Source: Chloroflexota bacterium
GTDB lineage: Bacteria > Chloroflexota > Dormibacteria > CF-121
Direction of reading: 5' to 3'
Length of the DNA stretch: 42,305 nt
Assembly: GCA_005882525.1 (NCBI GenBank)
Contig: VBGO01000008.1
Span: forward strand, 1-42,305
The notes beneath the pieces are model-generated. The model saw nothing but the letters and a program-made list of their open reading frames with translations, had not been told where the DNA came from and searched no databases. A program made the position numbers and the translations under genes. Positions 27,283-37,867 of this stretch are shown one piece after another. How positions within the stretch are numbered: the stretch's first letter is position 1; the number at the start of each line of letters is the position of its first letter.

Positions 27283-27869
27283 GGCAGCCAGATCTCGGAC
27301 GCGGACTGCACGTCGGTGATCCACCAGCGTCCATCGATGTCGACCAGGGTGTAGTGGTAATAGCCGAGGAACCGGTGGGTCGTCCGCCGGCCGAGGCCGA
27401 CCCCTTTCTCCGCATCCGGTACCAAGCGGTAGATCCACTCTTCCTTGGTCGTCACGTTGACGTTCTGCGGGCTGGCTTCGAGGCCATAAGCGGAAAGCTC
27501 AACCTTGCCGATCTGCAAGTAGGCGGTGTAAGAAACATCCAGCACCTCGCAGGTGATGTCCAGGCGAGCTGCGGGGAACGACTCGAAGTCCCCGGAGAGG
27601 TCGTGCGCGACTTGGGACAACATTGGCTCCAGGTACACCTCGCGCAGCACGTCGGCATCACGGTTGTTGTACGCCTGCTGATTGAGCTTGATCGACCGCA
27701 GGACGGTGTCCTTGATGGCCGAAACGTTGAACGCCGTCTCCCGCTGCACGCCTAGAGAGTAGCAAAGGGGCGAACGGCATCCCGCGGGTTTCTGAGGGGC
27801 GACGGTCTGGTAAACCTTTGTAAACCTCGTCGCCCCCTGGCCGGTCGGCCGGGCCGTAGTGCGAAGCAA
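27279..27869 (-). CDS. Hypothetical protein (possible NTF2-like/DUF4101-like fold, unverified)
   Basis: 196-aa ORF. The TTG start at 27869 is preceded by a strong GGAAGGAGGG SD 4-5 nt upstream. The C-terminus YHYTLVDIDGRWWITDV resembles NTF2-like domains. Its stop overlaps the convergent GT87 stop. Confidence 0.6.
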   Translation of the reverse strand: MLRTTARPTGQGATRFTKVYQTVAPQKPAGCRSPLCYSLGVQRETAFNVSAIKDTVLRSIKLNQQAYNNRDADVLREVYLEPMLSQVAHDLSGDFESFPAARLDITCEVLDVSYTAYLQIGKVELSAYGLEASPQNVNVTTKEEWIYRLVPDAEKGVGLGRRTTHRFLGYYHYTLVDIDGRWWITDVQSASEIWLP

Positions 27870-35602: not shown

Positions 35603-37867
35603 ATGACTGCCCTCGACCGCCAGTTCGTCCAGCTTCGGTTTGCGGCGCTCCTGATTCCGCTCGGCCTCCTCCTCTGGCTCCATTCGGCGTCGGTCCCGGT
35701 CGCCATCCTGCTGGGTGGCATGCTGGCCGCCTATAACGGGGTGGCGGCGCTGGCGATCCGACGGAATGCGGTCCCCCGTTTCGGCAAGCCGATGGCGGTG
35801 CTCCTGCTCGTCCTGGATCACCTGGTCGTCACCGGCTGGATCCTGCTCTTCGCGTCGCCTTCCTCCAGCCTCCCGTATCTTCTCTATGCCCTGGTCGCGG
35901 CCGAAGCGGTGTTCCGCTTCGAACTCTGGGGCGGCATCGGGACCAGCCTCTTCTTCACGAGCGGCATCATCCTCTTCCAGACCAGCGACCTCGGGCTCGC
36001 CATCTCGGTGCGCGACGCGATCCTGCGGGCCGTCCCCACCGTCGCCGTGATCACCGGCCTGGGCGCCGCGGTGCGGGCCCTGAATACCGAGATCCGCGGC
36101 ACCCGGCGCCGGCTCGCCCAGACGGAGCAGCTCCGCAACGTGCTCGGCGAGCTGGTGGGTCAGCTGGATGTATCGCGCATGCTCTACACCGTCATCCGCT
36201 GCGGCATGGAGCTCCTCCAGATGGACTCCGGGGCCATCGTGTTGCTCGACGAGGAGCGCGGGGTGTTTACGTTGGGGGCGGCGGTTCGCCTCGAGGCGGC
36301 CATCGAAGGCGTGACCATCTCAGCCGGCGACGGGATCGTCGGGCGGGTGGTCCGGGAGCGCCGTTTCGTGATGCTCGCCGAGCCGCCCCTGTTCGATCTG
36401 GCCGCGCTCAATGCGGCCGGCTATCGCCGAGTCTTCGGGACCCCCGTCCTGCTGGAAGGCAAGGTCTCGGGCGTGCTCCACCTGCAGACGCGCGAAGACC
36501 AGCGCCGGCTGACCCGATGGGAAGAGGAGGCGCTCGAGGTGCTGGCCCAGCAGCTGGCCGTCGCGCTCCGCAACGTCCACCTCTTCGAGGAGACCGAAAA
36601 GCGCGCCCGCCGGCTGGAGCTGCTCAACCGATCGATCGACCAGATGAACCAGAAACTCTTCGAGCCGGAGCTGCTCGACATCATCGCCACGGCGCTCACC
36701 GGCAACCTCGATTTTGCCGCCGCTCAGGTCTGGCTGCTGGAGGCAAGCGACGGCGCGCTCTGGCGCCGGGCCAGCCATCACGTCACCCGCAACGCGCCGC
36801 CGGTGCCCGGCCGGGTGGAACGCGGCATGGGCGAGATCGGCCAGGTGGCCGAGCTGCGGGTCCCGATCGTCACCAACGACCCGGCCAACCACCGCCAGCT
36901 CGCGCTCAACCCCTGGATGTCGGAAGAAGGGATCCAGGCGTTCGCCGGATTTCCGATGGTCGTCGGCGACCAGCTGCTGGGCGTGCTCGCCATCTATCAC
37001 CGGCGCGCCCTGGACCGGAACACCATCGAGCTGCTGACGCTCTTCGCGCAGCATGCCGCCACGGCCATCCAGGAGGCGCACCTCTTCCATCTCGCCACGG
37101 AGCAGACGGCGCGGCTGGGCGCGGTCAACGCCGAGCTGCAACGCGCGAACCAGGTGAAGGCGGAGTTCCTCGCCAACATGAGCCACGAGTTGCGCACCCC
37201 GCTGAACTCGATCCTGGGGTTTTCCCAACTCCTGCTCGAGGGGGATGGGGGCGTGCTCAGCCAGGACCAGCGTCAGGACGTCGACATCATCGCCCAGAAC
37301 GGCCAGCACCTGCTCGCGCTGATCAACGACCTGCTCGACATTTCCAAGCTCGAGGCGGGTAAGGCCCAGCTGCATCGCGGCGAGGTCGACGTGGAGCCAC
37401 TGATTTCGGAGTGTGTGGAGAGCGTCCGCTCGCTGACCAAGCCGAAGAAGCTCGAGCTGACCGCCAGCGTATCGCCCGAGGTGGGGCGCGTCTTCGCCGA
37501 CGGGCCCAAGCTCAAGCAGGTACTGCTCAACCTGCTGGGCAACGCCATCAAGTTCACCGAGTCCGGCAGCGTGCGGGTGACGGCCGAACGCCAGGGAGCC
37601 GAGTTGCTTATCAGCGTCCGCGACACCGGCATCGGGGTGCCGCCGGACGATGCGGAGCGGATCTTCGAGAGCTTCCAGCAGGGTCAAAGCGGCATCAGCG
37701 GCAAGTATCAGGGCACCGGGCTGGGGCTGGCGATCTCCCGCCGGCTGGTGGAGATGCACGGGGGACGCATCTGGGTGAAGAGCCCGCCGGGTCAGGGCAG
37801 CACCTTCACCTTCACCATCCCGCAGCGGGCGCTGCCCGACGCGATCGATCTCTCGAGCGCGGCCTGA
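35603..37867 (+). CDS. Sensor histidine kinase F: multi-TM sensor, GAF, GAF, HisKA, HATPase_c
   Basis: About five N-terminal TM helices. GAF-like ends VSGVLHLQTRED...AVALRNVHLFEE and LLGVLAIYHRR...AATAIQEAHLF. H-box FLANMSHELRTPLNSILGFSQ. Boxes LNLLGNAIKFT, DTGIGV, GTGLGLAIS. GAGGG SD in the 15-nt gap after gene E. Confidence 0.9.
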   Translation: MTALDRQFVQLRFAALLIPLGLLLWLHSASVPVAILLGGMLAAYNGVAALAIRRNAVPRFGKPMAVLLLVLDHLVVTGWILLFASPSSSLPYLLYALVAAEAVFRFELWGGIGTSLFFTSGIILFQTSDLGLAISVRDAILRAVPTVAVITGLGAAVRALNTEIRGTRRRLAQTEQLRNVLGELVGQLDVSRMLYTVIRCGMELLQMDSGAIVLLDEERGVFTLGAAVRLEAAIEGVTISAGDGIVGRVVRERRFVMLAEPPLFDLAALNAAGYRRVFGTPVLLEGKVSGVLHLQTREDQRRLTRWEEEALEVLAQQLAVALRNVHLFEETEKRARRLELLNRSIDQMNQKLFEPELLDIIATALTGNLDFAAAQVWLLEASDGALWRRASHHVTRNAPPVPGRVERGMGEIGQVAELRVPIVTNDPANHRQLALNPWMSEEGIQAFAGFPMVVGDQLLGVLAIYHRRALDRNTIELLTLFAQHAATAIQEAHLFHLATEQTARLGAVNAELQRANQVKAEFLANMSHELRTPLNSILGFSQLLLEGDGGVLSQDQRQDVDIIAQNGQHLLALINDLLDISKLEAGKAQLHRGEVDVEPLISECVESVRSLTKPKKLELTASVSPEVGRVFADGPKLKQVLLNLLGNAIKFTESGSVRVTAERQGAELLISVRDTGIGVPPDDAERIFESFQQGQSGISGKYQGTGLGLAISRRLVEMHGGRIWVKSPPGQGSTFTFTIPQRALPDAIDLSSAA

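Follow-up and report, generated by a model that had tools for sequence, protein, structure and literature searches.

A conserved multi-kinase operon of Candidatus Dormibacterota, best described as a split phosphorelay around a coiled-coil protein with a DHp hairpin and two receivers

Introduction

What does a bacterial signaling operon act on when it encodes several histidine kinases and receivers and no recognizable output domain? The question was raised by six adjoining genes, here called A to F, which occupy positions 27859 to 37867 on the plus strand of a 42,305-nucleotide stretch of DNA from a Chloroflexota bacterium (GenBank assembly GCA_005882525.1, contig VBGO01000008.1, positions 1 to 42,305); this whole stretch is called the window below. 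A preliminary description, made from the letters of the DNA, had read the six genes as a translationally coupled operon for a putatively branched, multi-input phosphorelay, with the coiled coils as one possible output, and had not recognized them as a described system. The region A–F is best explained as a single operon encoding a multi-kinase phosphorelay of Candidatus Dormibacterota, the wiring of which is predicted. The system is best described as a split phosphorelay, assembled from standard two-component domains, around a phylum-specific coiled-coil protein, E, which carries a DHp (dimerization and histidine phosphotransfer) hairpin and two receivers (DHp-REC-REC). The Dormibacterota are an uncultured phylum, abundant in soil, for which there is, to our knowledge, no genetic system and almost no characterized regulation.

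Results

Gene order and conservation of A–F

The six genes and their predicted products were as follows.

27859-29997, plus strand: gene A, membrane-anchored sensor kinase with two transmembrane segments, GAF, GAF, HisKA (His479, 29293-29295), and HATPase_c (Pfam); start uncertain (27859 to approximately 27919)
29994-32423, plus strand: gene B, cytoplasmic receiver-gated kinase with R1 (Asn58), R2 (Asp197, 30582-30584), HisKA (His322, 30957-30959), HATPase_c, R3 (Glu609), and R4
32389-32778, plus strand: gene C, single-domain receiver with acceptor Asp54 (32548-32550), akin to the receivers of hybrid kinases (Pfam Response_reg); longest open reading frame from 32260
32778-33143, plus strand: gene D, 121-residue coiled-coil protein, chimera that joins N-terminal sequence of E to the tail of C
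33143-35587, plus strand: gene E, coiled coil (residues 10-456), DHp (residues 464-543; His486, 34598-34600), receiver R1 (residues 562-680; Asp614, 34982-34984), receiver R2 (residues 690-814; Asp741, 35363-35365), and a terminal Ala-Ala
35603-37867, plus strand: gene F, polytopic membrane sensor kinase with approximately five to six transmembrane segments, GAF, GAF, HisKA (His528, 37184-37186), and HATPase_c (Pfam)

The six reading frames and the junctions between them, as first described, were confirmed against the list of open reading frames and by reading of the sequence. A and B shared an ATGA overlap (29994-29997) with GGGGAGGG just before it, and C started at the GTG at 32389, with GAAGGAGG upstream, and overlapped B by 35 nt. 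TGATG formed the junctions of C with D (32776-32780) and of D with E (33141-33145), and a gap of 15 nt with GAAACGAGGGCCGGC separated E from F. Overlaps were found at four of the five junctions and were conserved in relatives. The true start codon of A is uncertain; its first approximately 40 codons were poorly conserved, and the GTG at 27859 was replaced in some orthologues.

The nearest relatives of E were annotated as Candidatus Dormibacteraeota or as "Chloroflexi bacterium" metagenome-assembled genomes (MAGs) from soil. One scan of species-representative genomes gave 38 loci with E at 67-96% identity, and in every locus that was long enough the order was a conserved hypothetical gene (minus strand), A, B, C, D, E, F, a GDT1 gene (minus strand), and an OmpR-family regulator gene (minus strand). 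Contigs from metagenomes showed the identical order in the A–F neighborhood, and A-B-C-D-E-F was kept in more than 35 species at a synonymous divergence (dS) of approximately 1. In approximately 35 species, pairwise dS was 0.8-1.1 and the ratio of nonsynonymous to synonymous divergence (dN/dS) was 0.06-0.16 for all six genes (A, 0.10; B, 0.09; C, 0.06; D, 0.16), which indicated that the six genes are real. On a more diverged contig (L130; E 66% identical) the order was A-B-C-E-F with the same 35-nt overlap of B and C, and on another (L131; E 51% identical) the E-F pair was retained. The region A–F is among the most conserved signaling loci of the Dormibacterota. The junctions and the syntenic A–F order found by a gene-neighborhood search in related genomes bore out the earlier claim of a single conserved, translationally coupled gene set with several kinases.

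A scan of positions 27000-39900 returned 0 sigma-70 promoters, and terminator-like sites inside the operon were not in excess (5 found against 7.7 expected), so that the promoter and terminator scan was uninformative. Folding of a hairpin 3' of F was no better than that of shuffled sequences. Rfam reported only 23S, 5S, and tRNA-Leu in the window, with no RNA family near the operon; these were the 3' end of a 23S rRNA gene (positions 1-121), a complete 5S rRNA gene (219-335), and a tRNA-Leu (GAG) gene (39746-39829).

Three kinases and a detached receiver

Pfam searches of all six proteins confirmed every domain call of the preliminary description. HisKA (E-values of 1e-20 to 1e-23) and HATPase_c (1e-30 to 1e-34) matched A, B, and F with full profile coverage, B also contained Response_reg in three significant stretches, and the N, G1, F, and G2 boxes read from the sequences were intact in all three proteins. 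Judged from these features, A, B, and F are catalytically complete kinases. Together with E, the operon contained three complete kinases and four H-boxes, as previously counted; the H-boxes had been quoted correctly, and all belonged to one HisKA subtype. The H-box helices of A, B, and E were nearly identical (PLNAI[IL]GFSEI[IL]) and invariant across species, which would fit common receiver partners. Gene A was 78-90% identical among the orthologous loci.

The best NCBIfam matches of A, B, F, and C were the hybrid kinases BarA, TorS, HrmK, LuxQ, and ArcB and their receiver domains, all below the cut-offs. C matched the receiver domains of BarA, HrmK, and TorS best, ahead of PhoB. The H-boxes of A, B, and F were of the subtype usual in hybrid kinases (BarA/TorS/HrmK-like), yet after the catalytic domain none of the three proteins carried a phospho-accepting receiver. 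Given their best matches to hybrid-kinase models, A and F resemble hybrid kinases from which the receiver, C, was split off as a gene of its own.

The seven receiver-like segments and the neighboring OmpR-family regulator were aligned to CheY for the key residues. B-R2, C, E-R1, and E-R2 kept the acidic pocket, the acceptor aspartate, the Ser/Thr, and the lysine, with E-D/D54/T/K in C, DD/D197/T/K in B-R2, and D-N/D/S/K in E-R1. Degenerate were B-R1 (D57N, no Lys), B-R3 (D57E), and B-R4 (all lost), although the R4 region was still 92-93% conserved. The count of four canonical and three degenerate receivers thus held. The acceptor aspartate and the Mg- and phosphate-binding residues were present in both C and B-R2, C being detached from a kinase and not fused to one. 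C was the most conserved small gene (dN/dS 0.06). A P-x-N-x-R-L pattern occurred in the alpha-1 helices of C and E-R2 and was absent from E-R1 and from the OmpR-family regulator, a weak hint that C and E-R2 may share DHp partners.

E is a DHp protein lacking a catalytic domain

In E, Pfam reported HisKA (residues 481-545, E-value of 1.4e-13) and two Response_reg domains at E-values of 0.01 or below, and no HATPase_c. Lacking an ATP-binding domain, E is unable to autophosphorylate in cis. The AlphaFold2 model of the protein, with a mean pLDDT (predicted local distance difference test) of 65, was entirely helical as far as residue 543, with helices at 10-267, 273-420, and 431-456 ahead of the DHp hairpin (464-503 and 512-543), and ended in two receiver folds. 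In Pfam and in the model alike, the DHp ran straight into receiver 1 with no catalytic-like domain between them. A Foldseek search with the whole model gave the tandem receivers of PleD as the best match (E-value of 2e-14) and otherwise single receivers only, with no informative match for the coiled coil; phmmer also aligned E with PleD (E-value of 4e-20). Within E, receiver 1 (dN/dS 0.015) and the DHp (0.04) were under much stronger constraint than the coiled coil (0.12).

Neither Pfam nor NCBIfam detected an output domain in A–F. Because Pfam, the model of E, and Foldseek gave only helices and receivers for this protein, the absence of a recognizable output domain, as stated in the preliminary description, was confirmed.

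The coiled coil of E contained a 72-nt internal repeat (33284-33355 and 33569-33640, 74% identical, 285 nt apart) encoding L-x-E-L-Q-x-x-Q-L-Q-W-A-x-D-R. Trp-x-x-[DE]-R recurred approximately six times along the rod and was conserved across the E family.

E belongs to a family of paralogues

A search of 1.84 billion cluster representatives gave approximately 15 clusters that shared the build of E, in which LQxxQLQWAxDRE motifs recur along an N-terminal coiled coil and the H-box QSHxLNSxLNAIxGFSxxLLDE precedes a pair of receivers, with no catalytic domain. Identity in these clusters extended down to approximately 33%, and beyond it lay only generic hybrid kinases. His486, Asp614, Lys663, Asp741, Thr771, and Lys793 did not vary among 28 family members, with identities as low as 36%, and His486 was also invariant in a set of 15 members. 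The named members were almost all Dormibacterota or from the same set of "Chloroflexi" MAGs. The distant members were paralogues, and two assemblies (GCA_005881175.1 and GCA_035716185.1) held both the operon and a paralogue. By its sequence relationships, E belongs to a family of paralogues restricted to the Dormibacterota and is not an oddity of this operon.

The paralogues had no kinase or receiver gene within 10 kb and occurred in two contexts. In the first, the order was uvrB-uvrA-uvrC-[mini-gene]-paralogue-lgt-whiA-gap-pgk-tpi, and in the second, gatA-gatB-...-dnaE-paralogue-yggT-BatA/VWA-DUF58-MoxR. Since the paralogues stand alone beside housekeeping genes, the function of the E family is therefore older than the operon and independent of it. 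Paralogues of the second type, 527-553 residues long and placed between dnaE and a YGGT-family gene, were observed in loci L058 (6353-12183), L069, L072, L075, and L080.

Directly upstream of the uvrC/whiA-linked paralogue in 19 loci, a mini-gene of approximately 85 residues encoded the N-terminal zinc-binding domain of ClpX as a protein by itself (Pfam zf-C4_ClpX; CSFCGK...ICHLC). The mini-gene was absent from the window and was located as follows.

Locus L125, 9738-9995: ClpX-zinc-finger mini-gene; also in loci L045, L059, L061, L063, L064, L066-L068, L070, L071, L073, L074, L078, L079, and L126-L129

Gene D is a partial copy of its neighbors

D matched no Pfam family above the cut-off. By BLASTP it aligned to residues 4-127 of E (E-value of 3e-9), its last 12 residues repeated the tail of C, and a direct repeat in the DNA (32743-32780 and 33111-33145) covered both stop/start junctions. 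A tandem duplication from the C tail into the first third of E accounts exactly for this arrangement. On contig L130, D was absent and the stop codon of C overlapped the start codon of E. D is a lineage-specific late addition, and the ancestral operon has five genes, A-B-C-E-F. The six-gene unit of the preliminary description thus stood as far as the six reading frames of this genome are concerned, but not as the ancestral unit. The reading frame of D was intact in 35 orthologues and under purifying selection (dN/dS 0.16), and D has therefore been kept. The possibility that D is a zinc finger like that of the mini-gene before the paralogue was rejected, since D had no cysteine and no such match.

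Ala-Ala termini of the operon proteins

A, C, D, E, and F ended in Ala-Ala (last codons 29986-29994, 32767-32775, 33132-33140, 35576-35584, and 37856-37864, respectively), the tails being GRAA, RKAA, SQAA, and SSAA. Their orthologues kept AA, AS, VA, or TA termini, with -VA in A. Among 30 gene families with at least five members each in the loci, conserved AA or AS termini were found only in D, E, F, and one family of E paralogues, and none of approximately 23 flanking gene families had a conserved Ala-Ala-type terminus. In the distant E paralogues, the last two residues were invariantly A-[AS] despite a preceding linker of variable length. An origin of these termini as a by-product of the stop/start overlaps was rejected, because the termini persist in F and in the stand-alone paralogues, where no downstream gene is coupled.

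A terminal Ala-Ala is critical for recognition by ClpXP in E. coli, in ssrA-like degrons, and in CtrA (PMC10862746, PMC12421884). In E. coli, the favorable residues upstream are Leu or aromatic, with a consensus of [LFYW]-[LAR]-L-A-A, and Ser-rich tags of the SSSAA type work poorly (PMC10862746). The receiver-only protein CpdR, when unphosphorylated, binds the N-terminal zinc-binding domain of ClpX (PMC9981736). The conserved Ala-Ala-type termini suggest that the levels of the operon proteins may be set by a ClpXP-type protease. These termini and the ClpX-zinc-finger mini-gene are two independent pointers to ClpX, which makes coordinated proteolysis a reasonable hypothesis.

Outside the operon, only two of the approximately 38 called genes encoded proteins ending in Ala-Ala, namely, a gene at 25184-26092 and the gene of a 133-residue HU/IHF-like DNA-binding protein (18734-19135, minus strand), which also ends in RKAA.

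Upstream DNA and the OmpR-family regulator

The following features flanked the operon.

27279-27749, minus strand: conserved hypothetical gene (approximately 156 residues), divergent from A with a common intergenic region; NTF2-like fold predicted
27810-27825, plus strand: GTAAACCTTTGTAAAC, a direct repeat upstream of A in which GTAAA occurs twice at a spacing of 10 nt; candidate operator for an OmpR-family regulator or promoter element
37915-38508, minus strand: GDT1 transporter gene, between F and the OmpR-family regulator gene
38610-39476, minus strand: OmpR/PhoB-family response regulator (Pfam Response_reg and Trans_reg_C); candidate terminal regulator

The DNA that separates A from the upstream gene was variable apart from three conserved islands. 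One contained the direct repeat, which was invariant as GTAAA[CG]C[TC]TTGT[AG]AA in 29 aligned loci with variable flanks. With up to two mismatches allowed, each of the 36 A–F loci contained it once, and no other site was found in 1.77 Mb of related loci; in the window, the exact match and one match with two mismatches were found against 0.22 expected. OmpR/PhoB-family regulators bind tandem repeats with a 10-nt period. The reverse complement of 27807-27828 was TTTACAAA-GG-TTTACCAG, which agreed at 14 of 16 positions with HLR1, although this was a single site that was not picked independently of the pattern. The HLR1 consensus, recognized by RpaB, is a pair of 8-nt direct repeats, (G/T)TTACA(T/A)(T/A), 2 nt apart (PMC6525291). 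The repeat is a lead to a putative OmpR-family site that could give the operon feedback control.

Two other islands were observed. The first (27753-27767) reads TGCTACTCT on the minus strand; it closely precedes the GTG at 27749 and resembles an extended -10 element of a leaderless transcript of the upstream gene. The second (27861-27874, GCGAAGCAATGCC) coincides in part with the nominal start of A, and an ATG within it, out of frame with A, begins a reading frame of 12 codons.

The upstream hypothetical gene was 83-99% identical in all loci, was confined to close relatives, and was usually called with 154-156 residues. An overlap of A with this minus-strand reading frame was a longest-frame artefact, the protein being approximately 156 residues long in relatives. 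Its AlphaFold2 model (mean pLDDT 71) gave weak Foldseek matches to NTF2-like domains, namely, the intermembrane-space domain of ARC6 and the CaMKII hub.

The OmpR-family regulator was canonical at the key receiver positions in the CheY alignment. Wherever a locus extended to it, its position was unchanged and its identity was 92-98%. Its best NCBIfam matches were RpaB (205 bits against a cut-off of 330) and MtrA, both below the cut-offs. It had been described as an orphan 0.7 kb downstream of F; no kinase of its own lay nearby, but the GDT1 gene intervenes between F and the regulator gene. From these features and the conserved repeat upstream of A, a link of the operon to the regulator is plausible. 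An N-terminal extension of approximately 45 residues preceded the receiver of the regulator, and it appears to be conserved, as tblastn matches spanned the full 288 residues at 92-98%.

Discussion

Proposed mechanism

We consider the chances about even that A, B, and F phosphorylate C and that the DHp of E relays the phosphate to its own receivers, to the OmpR-family regulator, or to both. In this mechanism, A, F, and B (gated through R2) would pass phosphate to C and perhaps also to the E receivers. In E, His486 would be the second histidine of a His-Asp-His-Asp relay, placed between C, or perhaps B-R2, and a terminal receiver. From His486, the phosphate could pass to the PleD-like tandem receivers of E and/or to the neighboring OmpR-family regulator. 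As the output, a rod-like E dimer, itself the effector, would assemble differently or bind partners differently depending on its phosphorylation. D, as a truncated copy of the E N-terminus, might act as a modulator of E or compete for its N-terminal segment. A transcriptional output may also arise through the OmpR-family protein, which perhaps binds the repeat upstream of A, and a ClpXP-type protease would set the levels of the proteins with Ala-Ala ends.

The place of E in this scheme follows from the histidines available. The next carrier in such a relay is normally an HPt (histidine phosphotransfer) histidine, and no HPt domain (PF01627) was found in A–F or in 20 other proteins of the window that were scanned. 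The DHp of E is the only other conserved histidine carrier, and E would thus take the part of Spo0B or ChpT.

Several points weigh against this mechanism. The direction of phosphate flow and the partners were assigned purely from domain logic. The segments of DHp helix 1 and receiver helix 1 were practically invariant among the orthologues, and because these interaction surfaces do not vary, covariation could not test the pairing of kinases and receivers. Spo0B and ChpT keep a catalytic-like domain, whereas E has none and matches neither family by sequence. The kinase-free, stand-alone paralogues indicate that the core function of the family needs no operon. The upstream repeat had no second copy near the regulator gene and could be a plain promoter element. 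The tails of the Ala-Ala proteins lack the upstream Leu favorable in E. coli, although the rules of E. coli may not be those of the Dormibacterota.

Alternative explanations

The operon might instead serve ordinary transcription control, A, B, F, and C feeding the OmpR-family regulator, which would bind GTAAA-N5-GTAAA, with E and D as accessory scaffolds. We regard this explanation, which partly overlaps the relay through E, as possible, with the balance against it. It would account for a strongly conserved regulator that has a canonical receiver, no kinase of its own nearby, and a constant position, and for a repeat of 10-nt period that is kept in 36 loci, is unique in 1.77 Mb, and resembles HLR1, the element of the best sub-threshold match, RpaB. 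However, the regulator gene is on the opposite strand, behind the GDT1 gene and outside the operon. Because all the loci are fairly close relatives, its adjacency may be inherited and not selected; contig L130 ends before the position of the regulator. Its receiver alpha-1 helix (DDDAMAREILKRIL) differs from the P-x-N-x-R-L of C and E-R2, and its binding to the repeat is a prediction.

In another explanation, E is a negative regulator, either by forming DHp heterodimers that block A, B, or F, as RetS does with GacS, or by acting as a phosphatase or phosphate sink for C and other receivers. The H-box helix of E, almost identical to those of A and B, would allow heterodimers, and the two receivers could act as sinks. 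Across the family, the Asp after the His and a Ser/Thr four residues after it are kept, which resembles the HisKA phosphatase motif E/DxxT/N (PMC12963549). Pure sequestration, however, needs no invariant phosphorylatable histidine, and the pseudokinase PsmA has lost its own (PMC12963549). Both receivers of E keep the full acceptor set and are its most constrained regions, a better fit to phosphate acceptance with a downstream consequence than to a passive sink, and the stand-alone paralogues have no adjacent kinase to inhibit. We therefore consider a negative role unlikely.

The E family might also be a Dormibacterota-specific filament or rod scaffold whose assembly is controlled by an internal Asp-His-Asp relay and whose abundance is controlled by ClpX-dependent proteolysis, the operon being a sensory input branch. 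This idea arose because the paralogues lie beside uvrABC-whiA and dnaE-yggT, one of them always preceded by the ClpX-zinc-finger mini-gene. We think it quite unlikely. If true, it would describe a cell organizer controlled by phosphorylation and proteolysis, with a logic like that of Caulobacter CckA-ChpT-CtrA/CpdR-ClpXP but with different parts.

E could be the substrate half of a split kinase, such that A, B, or F would phosphorylate His486 in trans in mixed complexes and E would then phosphorylate its own receivers; the three sensors would thereby meet on a single coiled-coil effector, with C not an intermediate. One H-box subtype in all four proteins, the tight translational coupling, and the retention of the histidine in E with no catalytic domain agree with such a role. 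Nevertheless, trans-phosphorylation normally takes place within a DHp dimer, and mixed dimers are hypothetical here. A split kinase would give no role to C, the dN/dS of which is 0.06, and the stand-alone paralogues would require unlinked kinases. On these grounds, a split kinase is highly doubtful.

That the six genes are independent two-component genes that merely adjoin, with no joint pathway, is hardly credible. Bacteria rich in two-component genes often have such clusters, and E paralogues function with no neighboring kinases. Against this reading, however, conserved overlaps link the genes at all but one of the five junctions, gene order stays constant both at dS of approximately 1 and where E is 51-66% identical, a single subtype covers all four H-boxes, and apart from C neither A nor F has its own receiver.

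Relation to characterized phosphorelays

No NCBIfam family was matched above its cut-off by any of the eight proteins scanned, and the literature searched on two-component systems of the Dormibacterota and on kinase-less DHp proteins held no description of the A–F system. The system therefore has no characterized counterpart in these sources, as the preliminary description had supposed. Multi-kinase clusters are common in other phyla, and an output-less multi-kinase operon is unsurprising in itself; the E family and the connections to ClpX are the interesting part. The operon would represent a phosphorelay with no HPt, in which separate proteins provide the kinase, the receiver, and the second histidine, the last of these lying in a DHp that has lost its catalytic domain and is carried on a long coiled coil. 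The Ala-Ala termini and the ClpX-zinc-finger mini-gene add a testable hint of coordinated proteolytic control of signaling proteins in the Dormibacterota.

The hybrid-kinase relays BarA/UvrY, ArcB, TorS/TorR, and LuxQ-LuxU-LuxO resemble the A–F system in the HisKA/HATPase subtype of A, B, and F, in a C-type receiver, and in several sensors that apparently converge. They differ from it in that here the receiver is separate, the cluster contains no HPt, the candidate second histidine is in a DHp, and there is no NCBIfam equivalog at the cut-off.

RocA-CovS, GacS/RetS/LadS of Pseudomonas, and PsmA of Streptomyces likewise combine several kinases with a kinase-derived protein that is unable to autophosphorylate. 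RetS and RocA are membrane proteins. No orthology was detectable. PsmA is hybrid-kinase-like and has a structural role at the DivIVA polarisome (PMC12963549). It has lost the histidine and keeps a catalytic-like domain, the reverse of E, and was for this reason rejected as a relative.

Among proteins that join a receiver to a long coiled coil, FrzS and AglZ of Myxococcus and OsaB of Streptomyces have localization or assembly, and not DNA binding, as their output. Compared with E, their domain order is reversed, FrzS has a pseudo-receiver, and none of them has a DHp. The best structural match of the E model was the REC-REC pair of PleD, in which phosphorylation drives dimerization through the receiver pair. 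Unlike PleD, E has no GGDEF or other enzymatic output and ends at receiver 2, and both of its receivers keep the acceptor aspartate.

Spo0B of the Bacillus sporulation relay and ChpT of the Caulobacter CckA-ChpT-CtrA/CpdR pathway are small, stand-alone DHp phosphotransferases. Each is a dimeric helical hairpin with a conserved histidine and no autokinase activity that acts between receivers (a comparison drawn partly from PMC9981736), which is the role proposed for the DHp of E. No Pfam match of E to the Spo0B or ChpT families was obtained, and whereas those proteins have kept a degenerate catalytic-like domain, E has none and is fused to a coiled coil of approximately 450 residues and to two receivers. 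If the role proposed for E is true, it would be a third architectural solution for the middle histidine, beside HPt and Spo0B/ChpT, and one that ties two-component signaling to a structural protein.

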